In this document: positions 23,480 to 35,710 of the stretch, piece after piece
Position numbering within the stretch: the first letter of the stretch is position 1
Layout: each line of letters opens with the position of its first letter
Assembly: GCA_026004195.1 (NCBI GenBank)
Contig: BPIQ01000001.1
Coordinates: 653,871-717,870 of the forward strand
Direction: 5' to 3'
Origin: Candidatus Binatia bacterium
GTDB lineage: Bacteria > Desulfobacterota > Binatia > HRBIN30 > BPIQ01
Length of the DNA: 64,000 bases
Made by a program: the position numbers and the translations under genes
Notes under the pieces: generated by a model
Told to the model about the DNA's origin: nothing
The model's input: only the letters and a program-made list of their open reading frames with translations
The model's database searches: none

Positions 23480-24109
23480 CTCTTCCGCGGAAACTTCGTC
23501 GAGCATCTTTTCGACGAGCCGCTCCACGCCGATCCGCGCCAGCTCGCCGGCCGAGAGCCATTTCGGGCCCCCGCGCCAGAACATCCACCACCGGAGAAGG
23601 TTCGACGTCAGCTCCTGCTGCGTTTCCTGGAAGGAGCCCTGCCACACGACCTTTCCGTCCCGGGAACGCACGAGGTAGAGGCGGAAACCCACGGAAGCCG
23701 GCTTCCGCGCCCCGAGCTCGGTTCCCACCCGCTCCCTGAAGCGCAGGATTTCCCCGCAGAGCACCGCGTCGGCTCCCACCTCCTGCCCGAGAGTCCGGGC
23801 GCGGTCGAAAAGCGGGCGCGAGCGGTCCGTGCGCGCGAGGGCTTCTCGGACTTCGAGGTCGGGCACCACGGCGAAGCGGGACTGCTCGGCCAGGACACCG
23901 TGAATCTCGGCGGTCACGATCGCTTCGGCTCCTTCCTCGACCGTCACCTCCGGGTCCACGGGCTTTCCGGGCAGGACGTGTCGCTCGAGGGGAAGGACCG
24001 CGATCCGGGGAAGGCGGCCCCCGATCAGGACCTCGCCGCCACGCCGCAAGGTCCCCGCGCAGCCCGTGAGAAAGCCGAGTGCGAGGAAAACGACGCCAGG
24101 AAGCCTCAT
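23381..24109 (-). CDS. putative lipoprotein (uncharacterized)
   Basis: C-terminal 242 aa of ORF 23381..26299. MRLPGVVFLALGFLTGC carries a lipobox. Its ATG overlaps the aspS stop (ATGA). Its 3' end overlaps the ald 3' end by about 99 bp on the opposite strand. Confidence 0.55.
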   Translation of the reverse strand: MRLPGVVFLALGFLTGCAGTLRRGGEVLIGGRLPRIAVLPLERHVLPGKPVDPEVTVEEGAEAIVTAEIHGVLAEQSRFAVVPDLEVREALARTDRSRPLFDRARTLGQEVGADAVLCGEILRFRERVGTELGARKPASVGFRLYLVRSRDGKVVWQGSFQETQQELTSNLLRWWMFWRGGPKWLSAGELARIGVERLVEKMLDEVSAEELQEGGRVAEREAERSRHAPMAQVPPERVEPAA

Positions 24110-25887
24110 GGCTTGGGAAGAACCACGCGCAGCCCGAGCTCGCGGAGCTGCTCCTCGGCCACCTCGCTCGGAGCGTCCGTCAGAGGACAGACCGCGCGCT
24201 GCGTTTTCGGGAAGGCGATCACGTCGCGCAGCGACTCGGCGCCGCTCGCGAGCATCACCAGGCGGTCGAGACCCAGCGCGATCCCCCCGTGCGGCGGTGC
24301 CCCGTAGGACAGCGCGTCGAGAAGAAATCCGAACTGCCGCCTCGCTTGCACCTCCGAGAGTCCGAGGAGCTCGAAGATTTTCGTCTGCAGTGCCGGGTCG
24401 TGGATTCTCAGGCTGCCGCCGCCGAGTTCCGTTCCGTTGAGAACCACGTCGTAAGCCAGCGCCCGCACGCCCAGAGGGTCGGACTCGAGGCGCGGGATGT
24501 CCTCGGGCCGCGGTGCCGTGAAGGGATGGTTGACGGAAACGATCCTCTTCTCTTCCCGGCTGTACTCGAAGAGCGGAAAGTCCGTGACCCAGAGGAACGC
24601 GAGTTTCTTCTCGTCGACGAGACCCAGGAGACGCCCGAGGTGAAGCCGGAGCTGGCCCGTCGCCTCCCGGGCGACCTCGCGAGGCCCGGCCACGAAGAGC
24701 ACGACGTCGCCGGGCGAGAGGTCGCACCGCCGCGCGATGTCCTCCTTCTCGGCGTCGGTCAGGTACTTCGCGATGGGAGACTGCCACACCGAAGGCGACT
24801 GGACGCGGGCCCAGGCCACGCCTTTCGCCCCGAAGGGAGCGACGATTTCGGGCAGCGCGTCGAGGTGGCTTCGCGAGAGCCTCTCGCCCTCGGGCACGCG
24901 GAGCGCCCGCACCACGCCCTCTCGTTCGAGGGCGTCGCGAAAAACGCGGAACTCGCTCCGCGCGGCCGCTTCGCTCACGTCCGTGATCTCGAGACCGAAG
25001 CGCAAATCCGGCCGGTCCGTGCCGTAACGGGTCGTGGCTTCCTCGTAGGAGAGACGTGGAAAGGGCGTCGGAACGGACCGGCCCGCCGCGCCGAAAGCCG
25101 CGGCCAGCATCCCCTCGACCACGGAGAAAATCTCCTCCGGATCGACGAAGGACATCTCGAGGTCGATCTGGGTGAATTCCGGCTGGCGGTCCGCGCGGAG
25201 GTCCTCGTCCCGGAAGCACCGTGCGATCTGGTAGTAGCGTTCGAAGCCTCCGACCATGAGGATCTGCTTGAAGAGCTGCGGGGACTGGGGGAGCGCGTAG
25301 AAACGCCCGGGGTGGACACGGCTCGGCACGAGGTAATCGCGCGCTCCCTCCGGCGTGCTGCGCGTGAGGATCGGGGTTTCGATCTCCACGAACCCTTCCG
25401 CGTCCAGGAAGTCCCGTACCGCCTTCACGATCCGGTGGCGCAAGAGGAAGCGGTCCCGCACCGCGGGCCGGCGGAAATCGAGGTAGCGGTAACGCAACCG
25501 CAGAGCCTCCGAAACCTCGTCCGCTTCGTCGAGCACGAACGGCAACGGGCGCGACGCCGCGAGCAGCTCCATTTCCCGCGCGACGACTTCGACGTCCCCC
25601 GTGGGAAGCGCCGGGTTGCGGGTTTCTTCGCTCCGCGCGGCGACGGTTCCCCGCACGGCCACGACGAACTCCGACCGGAGTCCGCGTGCGACCTCGTAGG
25701 CCGCGGAGCTGCGCGCCGGATCGCAGACCACCTGGACGATCCCGGCCCTGTCGCGCAGGTCGACGAAGATCAACCCTCCGTGGTCGCGCGTGCGTGCGAC
25801 CCAACCCATGAGCGTCACCTCGGACCCCACGTCCCGGGCCCGAAGCTCCCCGCAGGCGTGCGTGCGTCGCCAGCCGACCGTGCTCAT
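24106..25887 (-). CDS. aspS: aspartate--tRNA ligase
   Basis: Internal ATG of ORF 24106..26670. 593 aa with OB-fold anticodon-binding N-terminus, class II motifs and the GAD insertion. Confidence 0.9.
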   Translation of the reverse strand: MSTVGWRRTHACGELRARDVGSEVTLMGWVARTRDHGGLIFVDLRDRAGIVQVVCDPARSSAAYEVARGLRSEFVVAVRGTVAARSEETRNPALPTGDVEVVAREMELLAASRPLPFVLDEADEVSEALRLRYRYLDFRRPAVRDRFLLRHRIVKAVRDFLDAEGFVEIETPILTRSTPEGARDYLVPSRVHPGRFYALPQSPQLFKQILMVGGFERYYQIARCFRDEDLRADRQPEFTQIDLEMSFVDPEEIFSVVEGMLAAAFGAAGRSVPTPFPRLSYEEATTRYGTDRPDLRFGLEITDVSEAAARSEFRVFRDALEREGVVRALRVPEGERLSRSHLDALPEIVAPFGAKGVAWARVQSPSVWQSPIAKYLTDAEKEDIARRCDLSPGDVVLFVAGPREVAREATGQLRLHLGRLLGLVDEKKLAFLWVTDFPLFEYSREEKRIVSVNHPFTAPRPEDIPRLESDPLGVRALAYDVVLNGTELGGGSLRIHDPALQTKIFELLGLSEVQARRQFGFLLDALSYGAPPHGGIALGLDRLVMLASGAESLRDVIAFPKTQRAVCPLTDAPSEVAEEQLRELGLRVVLPKP

Positions 25888-27179
25888 GACCCGCCCGTTT
25901 TCGCCGACTCCCCGCCTCCGAGCCTGCGCAGCGCCGTGAGCACGGTCTCGGCGTCGCCCCCGAGCGGCACGGAGCGGCGGAAGTCCCGCTTGGCCACCAT
26001 GTCGCGGACCGTGGCCGCGCCGTCCGCGAGCTCTTCTTCCCCCACGATGAGCGTGAAGCGTGCCCCCTCCCTGTGGGCACGCCGCATCTGACTCCGGAGA
26101 CTTCGGTCGCCGCTTTCCATCTCGACGCGGACGCCGGCCCTCCGGAGCCGGTGGGCGAGCCCCTGTGCCGCCTTTTCGGCGGGCCGACCGACGGGGGCCA
26201 CGAACACCTCCACCCCTCCGGGCTCGGGGTGCGGTCCCGCCACCATGGCGAGTCGCTCGATCCCGAGAGCCACGCCCACGGCGGGAACGTCCGGCCCACC
26301 CAGTGCTTCGACGAGCCCGTCGTACCGCCCTCCGCCCCCGATCGCGTTCTGCGCCCCGAGCCCGGCCGCGAGTACCTCGAAAGCCGTCCGGCAGTAGTAG
26401 TCGAGCCCTCGCACGAGCCTCGGGTTTTCCCGGAACGCGATTCCCTCCGCCGAGACCAGCTCGCGCACGCGGGAGAAGTGCTCGCGGCACGCCTCGCACC
26501 AGAACTCCGGCAGCGACGGTGCGTTCTCGGTCGCCGCCCGGCAAGCTTCTTCCTTGCAGTCGAGGATGCGCAACGGGTTGCCCCCGAGTCGACGGCGGCA
26601 GTTTTCGCACAGGCGCTCGCCGAGCCGCTCGCCGAACTTGCGCACCGCCTCGCGGAAGCGAGGTCGGCACGCCGAACAGCCGAGAGAATTGAGCTCGAAC
26701 CAGGCCCGCTCCACCGCGAGCTCGTCCAGGAGGTCCGCCACGAGGAGGATCACCTCCGCGTCGAGTACCGGATCTTCGCGCCCGAAAGCCTCGACGCCGA
26801 TCTGGTGGAACTGCCGGTACCGACCCTTCTGAGGGCGCTCCCGCCGGAACATAGGTCCGATGTAGTAAAACTTAGCTTCGGGGTTCTTTACATAGATGCT
26901 GTGTTCCACGTAGGCACGGACGACCGAGGCGGTGCCTTCGGGACGCAGAGCGAGCCGCGTTCCGTCCCGGTCCTCGAACGTGTACATTTCCTTTTCCACG
27001 ATGTCGGAAAACTCGCCGATGGAGCGACCGAAAAGCGCCGCCTTTTCCGCCACCGGAAGTCGGATTTCGTCGTAGTGGTAGCGCGCGAAAAGCGTTCGCG
27101 CCGTGCGCTCGATCCAGCTCCACCGCGCGCTCTCTTCGGGAAGAACGTCGCGAAAACCCTTGACTGCGGAGATTTTCAT
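25884..27179 (-). CDS. hisS: histidine--tRNA ligase
   Basis: 431 aa with class IIa HisRS motifs. Its stop overlaps the aspS start. Confidence 0.9.
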   Translation of the reverse strand: MKISAVKGFRDVLPEESARWSWIERTARTLFARYHYDEIRLPVAEKAALFGRSIGEFSDIVEKEMYTFEDRDGTRLALRPEGTASVVRAYVEHSIYVKNPEAKFYYIGPMFRRERPQKGRYRQFHQIGVEAFGREDPVLDAEVILLVADLLDELAVERAWFELNSLGCSACRPRFREAVRKFGERLGERLCENCRRRLGGNPLRILDCKEEACRAATENAPSLPEFWCEACREHFSRVRELVSAEGIAFRENPRLVRGLDYYCRTAFEVLAAGLGAQNAIGGGGRYDGLVEALGGPDVPAVGVALGIERLAMVAGPHPEPGGVEVFVAPVGRPAEKAAQGLAHRLRRAGVRVEMESGDRSLRSQMRRAHREGARFTLIVGEEELADGAATVRDMVAKRDFRRSVPLGGDAETVLTALRRLGGGESAKTGGS

Positions 27180-27277: not shown

Positions 27278-30200
27278 GTGGCTCGAAGAACGACACCGCG
27301 AACGCATGCGAGCCCCCGGATGTTTCCCCGCGTTCTTTCCCGCGCGGTGCTTCCGGCCTTCCTGGGCATGCTGCTCTTCGCGCCTCCCGCCCTCTGCCAA
27401 CCGCGCGGCATCCAGCAGCTCAACGGATTCGAGGGCGGCGGCGCCGGCGACTACACGACGCAAGGGGCTACGGTCGTCGAGCCCGAGCTCTTTCCCCCTC
27501 CGGACCCTCCTCCGGAGGGTGTCTTCGGTTTCGTGGCCCGGAGCGGCCGCTTCGTCCTGCGAACGCGCAGCGTATCGGGCGAGGTGTCCTACGCGGAAGC
27601 GGCGCTTCCCGTCGCCGCGAACCAGGTGAGCGACGGAATCTGGGCCTGCTTCCGAACCCTTCCGTCCTCCCCGCGGCGCATCCGGAGCTGGTGGGCCGGT
27701 ACGACCCCGGTCTTCGAACTTTGGCTCGAGCCCGACGGTAGGGTCCGGCTCCAGGCAGGAGCTCGGTCCGAAATTTCCACGACGGCGATGGCCGACTGCA
27801 CCTTCGACTTCACGCACTACGAAGTTCTTTACTTCGCGAACGGCTCCCTCACGCTCCGGGTCGGGGGGTTCGTGGAAGCCACCCTGTTCCCGGGCCTCTC
27901 CTCGCCCGTCGACCGAACGAGAATCGGACCCGACGAGCCCTCCGGCGGGAGCCTCGAACTTTTCTGGGACGACCACACGTTCGGCCAGAGCTCGCTGTTC
28001 CACGGCGAGCTCCGTATCGCTTCCCTTCACCCCACGCAGGACGGCCAGTTCGCCGAGTGGACGGCGCAAACCAACCGCACGGGCCCGCCCTGCGACGACC
28101 TGGGCCTTTTCGGCTGCGTCCTCGAGCGCCCCCCGGACGGGGAAGAGACCCTCGTTTCGTCGGACGCGGCCGGCACGAGGGCTTCTTTCTGCCACGAAAC
28201 GACGGCGGACCTTTTTCTTTTCGGCGAAATGCTCGCCGTCAAAACACTGGCCATCGCGCGAGGAGATCCCGGCGCGGGGTTCGAGCTCGGGCTCGAGCTC
28301 GACTCGCCGGCTTGCGGGGGAACCTCGGGCGGCGTGCCGGTGGCGAGTCCGTTCTCCCCCGATTCGTCCTTCCGGGGATTCGCACGCGTGGACGAGGTGA
28401 ATCCCCTGGGGCCGGCTCCCTGGCAAGGCATCGACATCGACCGGACGGAGATCTTTCTCGCCCAAGCCTCGGACGGCGCTCGGGTAGAGGTCACGCAGGT
28501 CTTCCAGGAGGTGGCGTACGACACGACGGGGTTCCCCACGCCCACACTCTCGCCCTCGCCGACGCCGACCGTCACGCCCAGTCCCACGAAAACGCGCACG
28601 TTCACGCCCACCGCCACACCGAGCGTCACTCCCACCGTCACGCGCACCCCGACGCCCAGCCCGACCCCCACCGTTTCGCCCACACCCACTCCATCCCGGA
28701 CCCCTACTCCTTCCCCGACTCCTACGCCCACCCCCACCGCCACGCCGTCTCGGACCCCGACCCTGACCGCCACTCCGAGCCCGACGCCCACGCGGACACC
28801 TACCCCGACTCCCACCACGAGCCCGACGCCGTCCTTCTCACCCTCCTCCACGCCTTCGCCCCTTCCGACGCCTACCGGGACGTTCACACCGAGCGCCACG
28901 CCCAGCCACACGCCTTCTCCGTCTCCCACGGCGACCTTCACGCCCACTCCGCTTCCGACCGCCACTCCCACGAGCCCGTTGCGAGCTCTCACGCACCTGA
29001 ACGGCTTCGAGGCCGGGTCGCGGGAAGACTACAGGGTCGGTGCAGGCGTACCGACCGCCACTTCGCTGGCCCGAAGCGGCCTCTGGGGCATGGGGACCGC
29101 GTCGGCGGGAGCGCCGGAATATCTCTTTTTCGAGCTCGCATCGCCCACGGGTGTCTTCACGGACGGCTTCTGGGCATGCCGTCGCACGTCTTCCCTTTCC
29201 GCCTCGCGCCGGATCCGGTCGTGGCTTTCGAGCCCCGTGATCGCCGTGGTCTCGCTCTACCTCGAACCCGACTTCCGGGTCTCCGTCCGGGTCGAGGGCA
29301 CACCGCTCGGGACGAGCAGCACGCCTATGAGCGCGTGCCCGAACTTCACGCGCTACGAGCTCCAGTACGAAGCGGGAGGGTTCGTCCGCCTGCGCGTCGA
29401 CGGTAGCCAGGAGGTCGAAGCCACCCACGCTTCGACGGCCACGATCGTGCGAAGCCACATCGGACCCGATACGACCGGCTCACCCGTCGACCTCGTCTGG
29501 GACGATCATACCTTCTCTCCTTCGCTCGTCTTCCCCGGAGAGCTGCAAATCCGCGGGCTCGCGGTCACGACCGACGAACAGATCACGGGGTGGGGCAGCG
29601 GAGGCGGGTGCGGCGTGCCGGGGCTCTTCACCTGCGTTCGAGACGTTCCGCCGAACGAATCCCTGTTCGTACAAACCACCCTCGACGGAGCGAGAATCGC
29701 CTTCTGCCACGAGCCGACGAGCGAGGCGGGCATTTTCGGTTCGATTCTCGCCCTCAAAGTCACGGCTCACGCACGGCGCGAGAGCCAGTCGGTCCAGAGC
29801 CCGATGAACCTTTTCGTCCGTACCGACGCTCCGGCGTGCGGAGGAGCGGATCCGCAGAGACACGACGCGCCGGCGAATTTCGTGCCGGAGGTGTTCTACC
29901 AGGGCTTCGGCCGGATTCTCGAGACGAATCCGCGAACGGGTCTCCCGTGGACGGGGGCGGAAATCGACCGCACTTCGGTGGGCGTGACCCACTTCAACGA
30001 CAACGAAGCGGCACGTCTCGCTCAGGTACACGTCTCGGTCGCGTTCGACACGACGGGATTCCCGTCTCCCACGGCGACCCCCAGTCGAACCCCGACTCCC
30101 ACACCCACGCCGCGGCCCCCCACGCCCACCGCGAGCTTCTCGCCGACGAACTCACCCACGCCCACGCGCACGGCGTCTTCGACACCCACCCCCAACCCCA

Positions 30201-31759
30201 CCTCGACGGCGACGGCCACGTTTTCCGCCACACCTTCCCGAACTCCCACGAACACACGCACGCCGACCATCACCCGAACTCCCACGAACACGCGCACGCC
30301 GACGAGGACCCCCACCCCACCGCCCACCTCGGAGATCACCGCGACTCCTTCGGCGACTCTCACGGCCACGCCGAGCCCCGCTCCCACGACTCCCACCCCG
30401 ACGCCCGAATCTCCTACGCGCACCCCCACCGCTTCCGCGACTTCCACTCCTGCTTCCGCCTCTCCGACGCCGACAGCGAGCGAGGTCCCGACCGGCTCGC
30501 CGACCACGACGCCGGCCGAGGGCACGCCGACACCGACCGCCCCCACGGCGGCGCCGACTCCGAGCCCCACTGCATCCGCTTCCCCGTCTCCCACGGCCAC
30601 CGCGAGCTCGCTTCCCACTCCCGGCGTCGATCTACTCATTCTGAGCGGCCCCGAAACCCAGCCCTGCGTCTTCGACGTCGCGGCGAGTCTCATCGGCTTC
30701 GGTAACGCCTCGACACCGCTTTCGCGAATCGGGAACGACCCGCTCTTTTCCGACCCCACGGAGCTACGCTCCCGATACCGCGCCATCGTCGTCCCGGGGG
30801 GCCTGTCTCCGGCGGATTTCACGCAACTCGCGCGCCTGGTCGCTCCCGGAGGAGTTCTTTCGGAATTCGCGCGGCTCGGTGGCTCGCTCGTCCTCGACCT
30901 CCGGGGGTCGTTGCCCGACCCGCCGCCCGACGCCCTGGCTCCACGGGGCGTGAACGCGGACCTGAGCCGCACGCACGCGACGGGTGTCATCGTCGCCCCT
31001 TCCCATCCTTACTTCACGGGCTTCGGCTTCGCCGGAAGGATGCTCGGACCGGATGACTTCGAGGGCTGGGACCCCGTCGACCAGGGAAGCCTCACCGACA
31101 TCGGCGATGCGACGATCCTCGTCGGCAACGAAAGCCTGGCTCCCTCGATGATCGAGTACGCCTGGGGAAGCGGAAAGGTGATCGCCACGACCCTCAACTT
31201 CTGTGCGCAGGGCGCGAACGGGCCCGACCGTCCGGCCCTCGAGAATCTCCTGCGCTACGCGAGGTTCTTTTCCGGCACGGCCCTCACCCCGGCTCCTACG
31301 TTCACACCGACCTGGACTCCCACCGACACCCCGGTACCGCCCACTCCGACACGGACGCCCACCGGGCGGGCCACGGCCACGCCGACCCCTTCGCCGTCCC
31401 CCACCACCACCTTGCCGACGCTGCGTCCCGGAGACATCGACCGGAACGGGAAGCTCGAAGAGGCCGATCTGCGACTTCTCCTGCGGCTGCTCTTCGAGTT
31501 CAGCGGGATACCGGTTTCCGCCTCCGGTGCTCCGCGCGAAGCGGACGCGAACTTCGACGACTTTCTCACCGCGGCGGACGTCGTGGGATGGCTCGCCGCC
31601 CGCGCGGCCGAAAACGAGCGCCCGCCGTTCCAGGACAACGCCGGACCCGCCCTGCAAATCCCCTACCGCAAGGCCCTCCGCGGGAACGCGATCCGACCTC
31701 GCCCCTACGGCGCGAAGAGTGGTTCGCGCTCCTTCGGGGGTCCCGCGGCTTCCACGTAG
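27278..31759 (+). CDS. giant secreted multidomain protein with tandem duplicated ~400-aa domains, Pro/Thr linkers and a C-terminal dockerin-like module
   Basis: 1493 aa with an N-terminal signal peptide (alternative start at MFPRVL). Domains A (aa ~45-430) and B (~565-985) share collinear blocks, including LNGFE, WACxRT..SxRRIRSW and [11 protein letters not shown]. Thr/Pro-rich linkers are encoded at about 28.54-28.98, 30.06-30.61 and 31.29-31.41 kb. The tail [14 protein letters not shown] + [12 protein letters not shown] forms two EF-hand-like dockerin loops. Confidence 0.8.
28540..28985. repeat. low-complexity coding repeat (Pro/Thr linker 1)
   Basis: Reiterated ACGCC/CCCAC/CCGAC triplets encode (T/S)P repeats. 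They create spurious ORFs on both strands. Confidence 0.7.
30060..30615. repeat. low-complexity coding repeat (Pro/Thr linker 2)
   Basis: Same PT-codon reiteration, including near-duplicate CGAACTCCCACGAACAC units (TPTNTRTPT). Confidence 0.7.
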
Positions 31760-32109
31760 GCGAGAAGGGCGCGCTCGAGCTCGCGCACGCTCGCGAGCAC
31801 GCGGTCCCGCAGCTCCGGGTGCTCCTCGGTCTTCGAACCCAGCGCGTACTGCCCGGTCACGATCGTCCTGTAGCGTTCCTCGCCCTCGTCGGCGAAATCC
31901 GTCGCCTCGAAAACGACCATCGTGTCCCCGTCCGGAGAGTTCCGCACCGTGATCGTGCTGATGAGACGGATCCGCGGGACGGGCTCCGCCGTGGGCTTCG
32001 GAGTCGGTTCGTACCATCCGAGCTCCTGCACCACGGGTGGCGGAGCGACGGCCCAGACGAAGGGTAGGAGAGAAAAAACCCAGAGGAGCGTCCACTTCGA
32101 GAACCGCAT
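31705..32109 (-). CDS. small secreted hypothetical protein
   Basis: Internal ATG gives signal peptide [22 protein letters not shown]. 134 aa. Its 3' end overlaps the giant gene 3' end by about 55 bp on the opposite strand. Confidence 0.5.
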
Positions 32110-32172
32110 TCGTTTCCTCCAAGAGCCACGCGCGACCTTATCGGCACGCCGGGACCTTTGCAAAGCCGGGTT

Positions 32173-33528
32173 TCACGGGGCGCGGCAGTTCGGGTCGGGG
32201 TGGAGACAGGGAGCGCGGACGACGATCTCGCGTTCGTTGCCGACGTTCCCCCCGACGTCACGCAAACGAACCTTGAGACGCGTGTCGCCGGGCGGGAAAG
32301 CCATCTCGAGTGCCACCCGTCCGCAGAACTGGACGGTGGAGGCGGGGTCGATCGTGGCGAAGCGGCCGAGCGGGTCCAGCGTGCAGGGCTCCGCTGGCTC
32401 CTTGGCCTCGAAGCGGCAGCCGAAGTCGTTGAGTGCATCCGAAACCGCCGGGTTTCCCTCGAAATCGGGGGGATCGACACCGGGAACTCCTCCCGTGGGT
32501 CTCGGGGTCGGAAGGCTGGGCTCGCACACGAGAGGGTTTCCGTCACCGAGCTTTTTCGAGGAAAGGATCTGGATGTCGGGACGACCTCCGGGGTTGAAAA
32601 CCTGCCGGCCCACGCGGAGCCCGCTCGTGCCCCTGCGGCCTTCGACCACGAGGAGGAAACCACTCGGAACCGGGCGGCAGAAAACGGGGATCCCCCCCTC
32701 GGTCACCTCGATCGGCGCGTCGCAGGGGTCGAACACTCCGTCGTCCCGCCTGGCGACGAAGGCCGTCACCTGCGGTCCGAAGGGCAGCGGTTCGGTGGGG
32801 GTGCGCGTCTGCGTGGCCGTCGGTGTGCGGGACGGCGAGGGCGTGGGGGTCGGAGTCGGTGTTCGCGTGGGCGTCCGGGTCAGGGACGGCGTGAACGTCA
32901 CGGTGGCAGTAGGGACGGGGGTGCGCGTCCGCGTGGGCGACGGCGTGAAGGTGGGGATTCTCGTTTCCGTCGGGGTCCGGGTCGCCGTTCCGGTTCGCGT
33001 GGGCGTGGGAGTGCGGGTGGGAGTGGCCGAGTGCGTGGGCGTGGGAGTACGGGTGGGAGTCCTCGAAGAGGTCACCGTGGGGGTAGGGCTCGCGGCGCGG
33101 GTCGCGGAGGGCGTGGCGGTCGGGGACCATGTGACGGTGCCGGTCGGGGTCGGAGTCGGAGTCCGGGAGAAGAATTCCGTCGGGGAGCCGGTCGGCGTGA
33201 CCGACGGAGATCCGGAGGGCGGAGTGCCGGTCGGAGTCTCCGTGGGAGACACGGAAACGGTCGCGGAAAAAGTGGGAGAAGGTGGGGTAGGCGAACTTCC
33301 GAAGAGGAAAAGGACCGCCACGAGGTCGGCGGCACCGACTCTGCCGTCGCCGTCGACGTCGGCTCCGGGACATCCTCCTTCTGCGAAGATCCCCTCGACG
33401 AGCGCCGGAAGGTCGGCGTCGTCGAGAAACCCGTCGCAGTTCGCGTCACCGGGAAAACCCGGCGCGGTCGCGAACGCCTGCGTGTGGCAGAGGAGACCGA
33501 GCCCCACAAGGAAGAGCGGAACCCGCAA
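32173..33528 (-). CDS. secreted protein with N-terminal dockerin-like double Ca-loop module, Pro/Thr linker and C-terminal Cys-containing domain
   Basis: Signal peptide [33 protein letters not shown] and [13 protein letters not shown] match DxNxDGxxxxxD loops. A PT-rich linker of about 175 aa precedes a roughly 200-aa C-terminal domain with 8 Cys. Confidence 0.75.
32780..33306. repeat. low-complexity coding repeat (Pro/Thr linker in dockerin-like protein)
   Basis: Reiterated GGNGTNGG on plus, encoding PT on the minus strand. Causes multiple artefactual overlapping ORFs. Confidence 0.7.
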
Positions 33529-33549: not shown

Positions 33550-34848
33550 TCAGCGATCCGCGAACGTGAACATCGTGATGCCGTCGCCCAGAATGGGCAG
33601 GTGGAGCTGCGGAGCCGCGAAGACGAGCCTACCGGGGCCACCTTCTCGCTCGAAGTCCGTGCAGGAAAAGTTCTCCCCGCGGAGCTCGAACTCGAGAGGT
33701 GGAACCCCGACGAGGGCGTTCGGATTCTCGACTCGTCCGAAAGACCGTTCGGTGGTGAACGCCAGAGCCAGAGAAATTCCCGTCCCCTCGTCCCCACAGG
33801 GCAGAGCGGATTCCTGCGAGAGCTCGACGGGAAACCCCTGGAGACCCAGTTGCGGAAGCGGCGCGATCACCATGGCCCCGGGGGAGACGTCGCGGTCGTC
33901 GGGCTGCACGACCCCCAAGGGGCCGTTGCAGACACCCGGATGCGGAGCACCCGCTCCCTCCACGAGACCTCCCGCCGCGAGGCAATCCTGTTCCGTAAAA
34001 CCGTCCACCCCCACCGTACCGAGCACGTGGTTCTGGACGAGCCCGGCGGAGAAAGACGCGCTCGGGCGGCACGAGAGAAGGATCGCGTCCCGGTCCACGA
34101 CCGTCTCGCCGTTCCGCTCTCCGCGGGCGACCGCACGCACCACCTGCCCTGCAGGACGACCGCAAGAGAGAAGCCCTGCCGCCGAGACCGGAGCCATCGG
34201 CTTCAGGCAAAGGACGAGACCGGCCAAGGCTCGGAGGTCGGCGAACAGGTATTCCGACGTGTCCACGATGTCCACGACGGCCACACCCGTCTGCGGGTCG
34301 GTCGGGCCCGCATGGAACACGATCTCGCCCTGGAAGGGCCCGAGGGCGAGACCGTTGACGCCGAACGACGAGCCACCGGGCGAGAGGACGAAACGCCGGG
34401 TGCCGATCTCGGGGCGGAATTGCCCGCGCAACGGCACCTCCACCGGAACGGGATCCGTGCAAGCCGATTCCCCGGCCGGCAGGAGCTCGCGGAGTGCGGC
34501 CGAGAGGCTCCGCGCGACACTCCCCCCTCGCAACCGGACGGCGGAAATTTCCACACCCGTCGGGTCGCAATCGGGAAGGTCCGGGTCGGGTGTCGCGAGA
34601 CACACCGAGAGCGAGAACGTGCACTTCCCGTCGACGGCTCCGTCCTCGTCGCACTCGGGATCGCCGTCGGCGCAGTCGACGACCCGCGATCCCGGTGCCC
34701 TCGGCTCCACTCCTCCCCACGTGAGGAGGCAATCCGTCGAACGTCGACCGCCGCCTTCGATTTCGCAGTTCTCGGGACAATCGGCCCCGGCGAGAACGGG
34801 CAAAAGGCAGAAAACGAGCGCCGAGGAAACGATGCCGAATCTTTTCAT
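33550..34848 (-). CDS. secreted cysteine-rich hypothetical protein
   Basis: Internal ATG with GGGGAAAG RBS. Signal peptide [22 protein letters not shown], then a Cys/Asp-rich N-terminal segment ([11 protein letters not shown]...[19 protein letters not shown]). 432 aa. No recognisable family. Confidence 0.6.
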
Positions 34849-34990: not shown

Positions 34991-35710
34991 TCAGGGCCCC
35001 AGGATGCGGAGCTCCACGCGGCGGTTCCGCGCCCTTCCTTCGGGCGTGTCGTTCGACGCGATCGGTCTCGACTCGCCGTATCCGACCACCGAGAGCCGCG
35101 CCGGGTCGATGCCGGCCGCGACGAGATAACGGTAGACCGCTCGGGCACGGCGTTCGGAGAGCTTCTGGTTGTAAGCCTCGCTCGCGATCGAATCCGTGTG
35201 TCCTTCGATCACGACCTTGACGTCCGGATTCTCGCGGAGGATGGCCACGGCCTCCTCGAGCACGGGCCGGGCATCGGGACGGATATCGCTCTTGTCGTAG
35301 TCGAACTCGACCCCGCGCAGGATGATCTTTTTCTTGACGGGCCGGGGGGTCGGGGTCGGGGGTGGGAGCGTGGGGGTCGGTGTCGGTGTCGGAGCTTCCG
35401 GATCGAACACCATGTGGCCCACGAGGCCACAGAGCACGAGACCCACGGCCCCGCCGATCAGCGCCCCTTTCCACTGCTCCTTGTCGTCGCAAACGACGAC
35501 CGGGGGCTCCCCTTCGACGTTGAGCGCCGTGCATCCCGGCCGGTTGTTCTGGATGACCCACCCGGTTCCCGCCCCGACGGCGCCGCACGCGAGCGCCGGG
35601 ACGAGCGTGCCCTTCCCCCACGGCTTGCGCGCCATTCGCCGTGCGAAGTCGCATCCGCAGAGAACGAGCAGGCACGCGCAAGCGGCCACCAACGTTCGGC
35701 TTCTGAGCAT
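34991..35710 (-). CDS. OmpA-family protein (membrane N-terminal part + PT spacer + OmpA C-terminal peptidoglycan-binding domain)
   Basis: C-terminal ...FDYDKSDIRPDARPVLEE...NRRVELRI is the OmpA_C motif. A short PT spacer ([21 protein letters not shown]) links to a Gly-rich membrane N-terminal part. Confidence 0.8.
   Translation of the reverse strand: MLRSRTLVAACACLLVLCGCDFARRMARKPWGKGTLVPALACGAVGAGTGWVIQNNRPGCTALNVEGEPPVVVCDDKEQWKGALIGGAVGLVLCGLVGHMVFDPEAPTPTPTPTLPPPTPTPRPVKKKIILRGVEFDYDKSDIRPDARPVLEEAVAILRENPDVKVVIEGHTDSIASEAYNQKLSERRARAVYRYLVAAGIDPARLSVVGYGESRPIASNDTPEGRARNRRVELRILGP

Follow-up and report, generated by a model that had tools for sequence, protein, structure and literature searches.

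We analyzed a 64,000-nucleotide stretch of the Candidatus Binatia bacterium assembly GCA_026004195.1 (contig BPIQ01000001.1, forward-strand positions 653,871 to 717,870), which we call the window and number from its first letter. At 27278..31759 on the plus strand lies an uninterrupted open reading frame (ORF) that begins with GTG and encodes a giant protein of 1493 amino acids (aa); an alternative ATG start is found at codon 15, nucleotide (nt) 27320. The window has a GC content of 65-70% and contains many long spurious ORFs. The GC content at third codon positions (GC3) of the giant ORF is 0.78-0.82 per segment (about 0.80), including the linkers rich in proline and threonine (PT linkers), and it resembles that of the adjacent housekeeping genes. 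This uniformity across all segments indicates that the giant ORF is one real gene. Its product is a real, conserved, signal-peptide-bearing modular protein of uncultured Binatia. Promoter and terminator scans found sites no commoner than chance.

A previous sequence-only reading of this DNA had described a secreted protein made of a tandem duplication (domains A and B), PT linkers, a third domain (domain C) at aa ~1110-1335, and a C-terminal dockerin-like module. Composition scans confirmed three PT linkers, and the third domain is present at aa 1113-1335. A Sec-type signal peptide is predicted in the window protein and in every full-length ortholog, in agreement with the claimed secretion, and in all of these orthologs a hydrophobic leader ends in an A-x-A-like sequence just N-terminal to a conserved [LF]xRFNGFE motif. 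The DNA of the first PT linker shows weak repetition (61-76% matches). At the other end of the gene, the last 55 nt of the ORF overlap the 3' end of a convergent gene, n0 (31705-32163, minus strand). The full layout is given in Table 1.

Table 1. Segments of the giant gene and its predicted protein product
Feature	Position (strand)	Residues	Description and basis
Signal peptide, Sec-type (predicted)	27278..27397 (+)	aa 1-40	Basic n-region, hydrophobic stretch, predicted cleavage ALC/QP (between C and Q); heuristic reading of the sequence
Domain A, N-terminal lobe	27398..27988 (+)	aa 41-237	Predicted ConA/LamG-type beta-jelly-roll
Domain A, C-terminal lobe	27989..28516 (+)	aa 238-413	Predicted beta-sandwich with W221, P245, K282, and (D/N)P...W motifs; DSSP of the model
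PT linker 1	28517..28996 (+)	aa 414-573 (160 aa)	Composition scans
Domain B	28997..30067 (+)	aa 574-930	Paralog of A with both lobes, six Cys, and the invariant residues; BLASTP, HMM i-E 7.9e-134
PT linker 2	30068..30613 (+)	aa 931-1112 (182 aa)	Composition scans
Domain C	30614..31282 (+)	aa 1113-1335	Predicted class-I glutamine-amidotransferase-like alpha/beta domain (ThuA/STM3548/GH42-trimerisation/GIFT type)
PT linker 3	31283..31426 (+)	aa 1336-1383	Composition scans
Dockerin-like module	31427..31612 (+)	aa 1384-1445	Two 12-residue EF-hand-type loops, aa 1386-1397 and 1423-1434
C-terminal tail and stop codon	31613..31759 (+)	aa 1446-1493	Not conserved; orthologs stop right after the dockerin

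Domains A (aa 41-413) and B (aa 574-930) aligned collinearly over their full length by BLASTP, with 37% identity, 50% positives, and E=1e-61, a likeness far above chance. This result confirms the tandem duplication and the collinearity of the copies, with an identity slightly higher than the 30-35% previously estimated. The shared blocks that had been listed (LNGFE, DG[IF]WAC, RRIRSW, LEPD, WDDHTF, GEL[RQ]I, FCHE, LA[VL]K, PACGG, and DTTGFP) were all found in both copies, but the S(P/A) placed ahead of RRIRSW was not, because domain B has AS there. The sequence-only reading also needed correction on two counts, since the unit measures about 360-373 aa instead of ~400 aa and each copy carries six aligned Cys instead of five (residues 124, 174, 272, 280, 305, and 346 in domain A; 634, 687, 778, 786, 810, and 854 in domain B). 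Both copies keep all invariant residues. A hidden Markov model (HMM) search found no further paralogs of A/B within the window. Relatives with a single unit plus domain C and the dockerin exist (P0011 and P0014; homologous proteins carry P numbers and chromosomal loci L numbers here).

Searches of Pfam, NCBIfam, and the PDB sequences with domains A, B, and C gave no family match, and A and B had no Pfam match at E<=1. These searches also gave no match of A/B to any polysaccharide lyase (PL) or glycoside hydrolase (GH) family, and profile checks of each domain separately returned no confident match to a well-characterized family for A, B, or C. Two matches of the full-length protein, to AaBglC and to circumsporozoite protein, were rejected as low-complexity matches to the PT linkers alone. 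The view that the duplicated domain could not be placed therefore stands for Pfam, NCBIfam, and PDB sequences but not beyond them, since the unit can be placed both by fold and in an uncurated phage-linked superfamily.

We searched 1.84 billion cluster representatives exhaustively with a HMMER profile and retrieved 325 proteins at E<=1e-3, 15 of which scored at E<=1e-30 and make up the Binatia type. Most of the remaining relatives are stand-alone proteins of 330-400 aa that are matched over their full length. When 47 stand-alone relatives were compared with the PHROGs, 38 matched phrog_6368 and 31 matched phrog_2448, both of unknown function; a direct PHROGs hmmscan of A/B gave weak matches (E 0.002-0.003). 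Profile-profile alignment of 15 Binatia copies with the 47 relatives by hhalign gave a probability of 100% and E=5.7e-47 over 348 columns. Foldseek comparison of the domain A model with the predicted viral structures of BFVD gave E values down to 3e-20 and template modeling (TM) scores of 0.65-0.81 over about 370-400 columns; the matched phage proteins are 306-365 aa long and include one with a virion structural protein annotation. These full-length structural matches independently confirm the phage link drawn from sequence. Thus, the A/B unit is homologous over its full length to phage tail-module proteins. Among the distant relatives, 4 of the 47 also matched SO2946-like_C (PF22237; E about 3e-4) and 2 of the 47 matched Laminin_G_3 (PF13385); a literature search on SO2946-like_C found nothing useful.

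The phage genes stand in tail modules. In Pseudanabaena phage Pam4 the homolog gene comes just after the tape-measure and baseplate genes, and in Brevundimonas phage Delta it lies among the minor tail proteins. The phrog_6368/phrog_2448 proteins (Pam4 gp35, Delta gp31, and the "virion structural protein" of Achromobacter phage AchV4, about 330 aa) are homologous to the whole two-lobed unit and share the GFE, DD, W221, P245, K282, and (D/N)P...W motifs with A/B. However, they are single, stand-alone units in tail modules, whereas the Binatia gene has a fixed chromosomal locus without phage genes. They also lack the six Cys and the D79/R94/R96/W98/Y145/H193 set of A/B (residues in domain numbering, here and below), as well as the PT linkers, the GATase1-like (class-I glutamine amidotransferase-like) domain, and the dockerin. 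One such homolog, Pam4_35, bears the unverified depositor label "polysaccharide lyase".

The C-terminal lobe (HMM positions about 200-360) occurs alone in P0022, P0044, P0130, and P0133, where its partners are fn3, TIG, right-handed beta-helix, or cohesin and dockerin modules; Pfam has no separate model for this lobe. Since this lobe can occur alone, the A/B unit is a composite of two lobes. In P0022, P0044, P0049, P0130, and P0133, which are very large extracellular proteins from other organisms, the lobe is present as two to six tandem repeats. The full two-lobed unit was also seen as tandem pairs in Cys-free proteins that are not of the Binatia type (P0024, P0027, P0028, and P0072), which indicates that the unit was duplicated more than once. 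A Streptomyces rubiginosohelvolus hypothetical protein (P0151) is a member as well, and the family is therefore not limited to phages and Binatia. Ten family members carry only the record name "hypothetical protein".

We modeled domain A by AlphaFold2 (AF2) with a 59-sequence alignment. The resulting all-beta model is confident (mean predicted local distance difference test [pLDDT] of 92 and predicted TM score [pTM] of 0.91) and has the curved two-sheet jelly-roll of ConA-like proteins; it also has the features of a PL7/PL20-type jelly-roll with a concave cleft. As modeled, the A/B unit is a ConA/LamG-type jelly-roll followed by a second beta-sandwich, and no solved structure matched across both lobes. 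Its structural neighbors are overwhelmingly carbohydrate-active or carbohydrate-binding proteins, with true lyases among the closest. A/B resemble the ConA-like lectin/glucanase superfamily, the Pfam clan of Laminin_G_3, by fold but without a profile match. The fold-level likeness extends to siphophage carbohydrate-binding modules (CBMs), for example, the evolved Dit CBM2 of Lactobacillus phage J-1 (5LY8) and the baseplate upper protein of mycobacteriophage Douge (8ZDO), at 9-13% identity; these CBMs are insertions in Dit/BppU proteins, whereas the A/B-type units are free-standing and two-lobed. The Trichoderma reesei proteins Cip1 (3ZYP) and PL20 glucuronan lyase (2ZZJ) are secreted, like the giant protein, but show 11-13% identity to A/B and no HMM-level relationship, and they are single-lobe domains to which A/B add the second beta-sandwich.

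Conservation was analyzed in the 59 aligned sequences, which comprise 18 Binatia-type copies and 41 phage-like relatives. Conserved across the superfamily are G10-F11-E12, G50, G177, D191-D192, W221, P245, K282, P336, and W342, with E12 kept in 52 of the 59 copies, D191 invariant, and D192 present in 58. The six Cys, Y19, D79, R94, R96, W98, Y145, D179, H193, and Q367 are conserved only in the Binatia type, where they are invariant or present in 17 of 18 copies. The N-terminal lobe of domain A holds both the GFE...DD motif and the Binatia-specific D79/W82/R94/R96/W98/Y145/H193 set. In Cip1 and PL20, a structural Ca2+ is bound opposite the cleft by a Glu near the N terminus together with an Asp from the C-terminal strand, and the Cip1 ligands Glu7 and Asp206 are analogous in position to GFE...DD (PMC3764139). 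This shared placement suggests, by analogy, that the GFE...DD motif is probably a fold-stabilizing structural Ca2+ site of the jelly-roll. R94, R96, and W98 alternate along a single beta-strand (residues 93-100 of the AF2 model) and should therefore face one side, which is probably the exposed concave sheet because two arginines cannot be buried.

The mature protein has 14 Cys, all at invariant columns and distributed 6+6+2 across A, B, and C. The phage relatives conserve none of the six A/B Cys. An even number of invariant Cys in each domain fits disulfides formed after export, and the absence of these Cys from the phage relatives fits adaptation to an oxidizing extracytoplasmic compartment. 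These counts strengthen the idea of an extracellular disulfide-stabilized fold that the sequence-only reading had put forward. Sequence order and lobe membership lead us to guess at pairings of 84-134, 232-240, and 265-306.

The model of domain C (pLDDT 85.9) has the flavodoxin-like alpha/beta fold of GATase1. The nucleophile Cys of the GATase Cys-His-Glu triad, expected at the elbow after the central strand (93-97 of the domain), is absent in the window protein and also in ten orthologs, the latter reading LGGxAVI[NH][VI] followed by S, A, N, or G, and a catalytic GATase identity was rejected on this ground. The two invariant Cys of the domain, aa 1130 and 1309 (C20 and C199 of the domain), lie away from the nucleophile position. 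As modeled, domain C is a non-catalytic GATase1-like fold. It falls outside the sequence families of the known GATase1-like domains 2GK3 (STM3548), 3RHT (Planctomyces GATase1-like), 1T0B (ThuA-like), 3TTS (GH42 trimerisation domain), and 5FMS (IFT52 GIFT domain). Unlike these, it has its own motifs (HPxxTGxGxGG, EYxxGxGxV, and NLLxYxRFF) and an invariant Cys pair, and it is predicted to be extracytoplasmic and is fused to lectin-like modules.

The C-terminal module has the two-loop pattern of dockerins that had been claimed for it, and both loops in the window protein fit the 12-residue EF-hand-like Ca2+ pattern D-x-[DN]-x-[DN]-...-[DE]. The modules of the orthologs P0011, P0014, and P0021, which are of the plain type, scored 40.9, 40.5, and 42.8 bits against Pfam Dockerin_1 (PF00404), and that of P0004, which is Cys-bracketed, scored 29.3 bits. 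These scores are above the gathering cutoff of 22.9 bits, whereas the window copy falls below it, so that dockerin membership of the window protein rests on orthology. By sequence orthology, then, the C terminus is dockerin-type. The plain type, PGD[IV]N[GN]DG, is seen in the window, P0011, P0014, and P0021. A Cys-bracketed variant (C-x-G-D-C-[ND]-x-[DSN]-G ... C ... G-C) is seen in P0003, P0004, P0006, P0007, P0008, and P0013; among the four such variants tested, one scored above the Dockerin_1 cutoff. Like the dockerin proteins of PF00404, the giant protein has a C-terminal duplicated EF-hand-type loop-helix after a PT linker; unlike them, several orthologs are Cys-bracketed (CxGDCNGDG...C), and no recognizable glycoside hydrolase is attached. 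A literature search on Binatia together with dockerin found no papers.

A word-indexed homolog search retrieved one protein with domain A (P0001) and three with the 59-sequence profile. An exact look-up of the window protein gave no record. The contig of P0001 (L001) is syntenic with the window and ridden with frameshifts. Scanning species-representative genomes gave seven loci, each in a metagenome-assembled genome (four labeled Candidatus Binatia and three "uncultured (delta proteo)bacterium"), and all seven encode the A-PT-B-PT-C layout. Across the eight loci L001-L008, the place of the giant gene is fixed, with aspS and hisS upstream on the minus strand and n0 and n1 downstream and convergent; n0 and the C-terminal domain of n1 were matched beside the giant gene in seven of the eight (there was no match in L003). 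The window and L002 also share the next two genes after n1, namely, n2 and an OmpA-family gene. Among these genomes, identity is about 60% for HisS and 33-45% for the modular protein. Together with the fixed housekeeping synteny, these values indicate that the giant gene is chromosomal, vertically inherited, and fast evolving. A prophage, mobile element, or island was rejected because the housekeeping synteny is conserved across the eight loci, and neither phage genes nor a toxin domain or an immunity gene was found at the locus in the window or in L001-L008.

A concern of the sequence-only reading had been that frameshifts might split the ORF upon resequencing, but intact orthologs of the same architecture, 1353-1384 aa long, are present in independent assemblies (P0003, P0004, P0006, and P0007). 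Frameshifted translations with Arg-rich out-of-frame stretches were observed in P0001, P0010, P0015, and P0025 and at L001 8530-12510 and L008 7150-8250. The assemblies behind these records also have a broken aspS or hisS, so the records misrepresent the true gene products.

We built a neighbor-joining tree of the A and B copies with four phage-like sequences preset as the outgroup, against which the Binatia copies form one group. One clade (99% bootstrap) unites the second copies of L003-L008 and another (81%) the first copies of L003-L007; window B pairs with the second copy of L002 (100%) and window A with the first (57%). The deeper nodes lack resolution. The copy-wise clades across genera indicate that the A/B duplication is older than the split of these genera and that the copies have not been homogenized. 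The duplication is therefore, on the evidence of the sequences, ancient.

Four genes downstream of the giant gene lie on the opposite strand. The 152-aa product of n0 bears a hydrophobic segment at its N terminus, could be assigned to no family, and is 44-50% identical among seven of the eight loci. The n1 gene (32173-33528, minus strand) encodes 451 aa. The protein begins with a signal peptide and a Cys-containing dockerin-like EF-hand pair, and a PT linker (about 100 aa) joins these to a C-terminal domain (about 190 aa) that contains Cys, is conserved, and belongs to no Pfam or NCBIfam family. Among PDB sequences, n1 weakly matched LpqN (E 4.5e-4) and, at E 0.029, a group I dockerin. The product of the n2 gene (33550-34848, minus strand) is secreted and rich in Cys, measures about 432 aa from a likely start at MKRFGIV, is 48% identical to its L002 counterpart, and had no match in Pfam, NCBIfam, or the PDB sequences. 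The OmpA-family gene (34991-35710, minus strand) has a short PT linker of its own at 35315-35413.

We propose that the giant protein is a dockerin-tethered, multivalent extracellular glycan-binding protein that is disulfide stabilized and Sec exported, and we give this proposal an even chance of being right. The protein would be exported by Sec and folded oxidatively, and the dockerin would tether it, in a Ca2+-dependent manner, to a partner resembling cohesin, carried either by the cell surface or by a scaffold outside the cell; the neighbor n1 has a module similar to this dockerin. The PT spacers of 160-180 residues would hold the two lectin-like units tens of nanometers out, where they could bind a polysaccharide or glycoconjugate multivalently, as phage-baseplate carbohydrate-binding modules do on host surface glycans. 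The bound glycan may be acidic, as the invariant Arg-x-Arg-x-Trp on one strand face hints, and the GATase1-like domain could serve in assembly or accessory binding. Support for the extracellular setting comes from the modules that accompany the C-terminal lobe elsewhere, which include fn3, TIG, beta-helix, and cohesin/dockerin modules. The proposal is further supported by signs of selection on each of the two copies, which remain distinct from genus to genus and keep their invariant residues.

Several observations weigh against this proposal. The dockerin-like module of the window protein scored 17.9-19.5 bits against Dockerin_1 (E=0.0011 at 19.5 bits), below the gathering cutoff, and no cohesin was found within the 64-kb window, where n0, n1, and n2 had no Pfam Cohesin match. 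These three neighbors have no family assignment at all in Pfam, NCBIfam, or the PDB sequences. Because an OmpA-family gene is adjacent, Binatia are presumably diderm, and Sec export alone would then reach only the periplasm. The closest structural neighbors include true lyases, and the function of Cip1 is itself unknown (PMC3764139); binding and catalysis cannot be told apart on this evidence.

The main rival explanation, which we consider possible but doubtful, is that A and B are catalytic and form a new PL7/PL20-type polysaccharide-lyase-like or glycanase family acting on an acidic polysaccharide, in which case the protein would be a two-headed enzyme brought by its dockerin into an assembly like a cellulosome. 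R94, R96, Y145, H193, D79, and D179 are invariant in the Binatia type, missing in the phage relatives, and of the residue types used by PL7/PL20 lyases, and the suspected cleft residues of Cip1 (His98, Arg100, Gln104, and Asp116) lie at a similar sequence position (PMC3764139). However, Cip1 has no convincing lyase activity, and the Cip1 strand corresponding to that of H193, which sits on the C-terminal strand beside the probable Ca2+-ligand Asp, is opposite the cleft (PMC3764139). The enzyme explanation is also countered by the lack of a sequence match to any PL or GH family, by an identity to lyases of 10-13% in a fold common to many noncatalytic lectins and CBMs, and by the tandem arrangement of same-type modules on long spacers, which is more typical of binding modules; the depositors' "polysaccharide lyase" label of Pam4_35 speaks for it but is unverified. 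A bolder version, which we regard as unlikely, makes A/B the founders of a disulfide-braced lyase-like family on acidic polysaccharide, derived from or ancestral to the phage tail-module family, that together with n1 would form an unnoticed cohesin-dockerin-type assembly in Binatota.

It is distinctly unlikely, in our judgment, that the giant protein is instead a structural or envelope protein that works with n0, n1, n2, and the OmpA-family protein in a periplasmic or outer-membrane complex or a surface layer, with jelly-rolls that contact proteins and not glycans. The synteny of n0 and n1 with the giant gene across loci, and of n2 and ompA in L002, would fit such a complex, as would the dockerin-like module and PT linker of n1, the PT linker of the OmpA-family protein, and the frequent oligomerization of noncatalytic GATase1-like domains (e.g., the GH42 trimerisation domain and IFT52). 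However, the neighbors are convergent on the opposite strand and so share no operon with the giant gene, spacers of 160-180 residues are long for the periplasm, and the fold neighbors are overwhelmingly carbohydrate active or carbohydrate binding. Full-length homology to phage tail-module proteins and fast evolution (33-45% identity versus about 60% for the adjacent hisS) also bring to mind a domesticated phage receptor-binding module that serves adhesion to prey or partner bacteria, bacteriocin-like targeting, or as a phage-soaking decoy. We consider this very unlikely, given stable vertical inheritance at a housekeeping locus that lacks phage genes, a toxin domain, and an immunity gene; the tree, with phage-like sequences preset as its outgroup, does not tell whether the transfer went from phage to cell or the other way. 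The chance that the gene is an artefact, that is, a misassembled or frameshifted pseudogene or spurious ORFs fused by high GC, is negligible. High-GC DNA does yield many long spurious ORFs, and the L001 and L008 assemblies are frameshifted, but all segments have coding-type GC3, four independent orthologs are intact, AF2 folds A and C with confidence, and the frameshifts are confined to assemblies in which housekeeping genes are broken too.

The giant protein is a secreted lectin-like modular protein with a dockerin, of a familiar kind, and among cellular proteins it is the member that defines a superfamily without a name. Its components (lectin-like jelly-rolls, PT linkers, a GATase1-like accessory domain, and a dockerin) are each well known from other proteins, and nothing known is overturned. 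This superfamily of at least 325 clusters (at 50% identity) spans phage tail modules and cellular surface proteins and has no Pfam, NCBIfam, or PDB entry; the present analysis assigns it a fold, supplies a set of motifs, and delimits a Binatia subfamily. For Binatota, a soil and sediment phylum known from metagenomes only, the giant protein is a candidate conserved, fast-evolving surface protein with a probable role in contacting polysaccharides or other cells. The homology also offers a route to asking what unannotated phage tail proteins bind.

Two minor observations concern the surroundings of the giant gene. The listed aspS ORF (24106-27179, minus strand, 854 aa) overlaps hisS at 25884-26670, and its Pfam domains begin at residue 285, which places the true aspS start well downstream of the listed one. 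The local GC skew is -0.14 to -0.21 at 28-32 kb and +0.12 at 32-34 kb. This swing falls where the PT-linker codons of the giant gene (plus strand) and of n1 (minus strand) are rich in C; it is a compositional effect of the linkers and not a replication signal.

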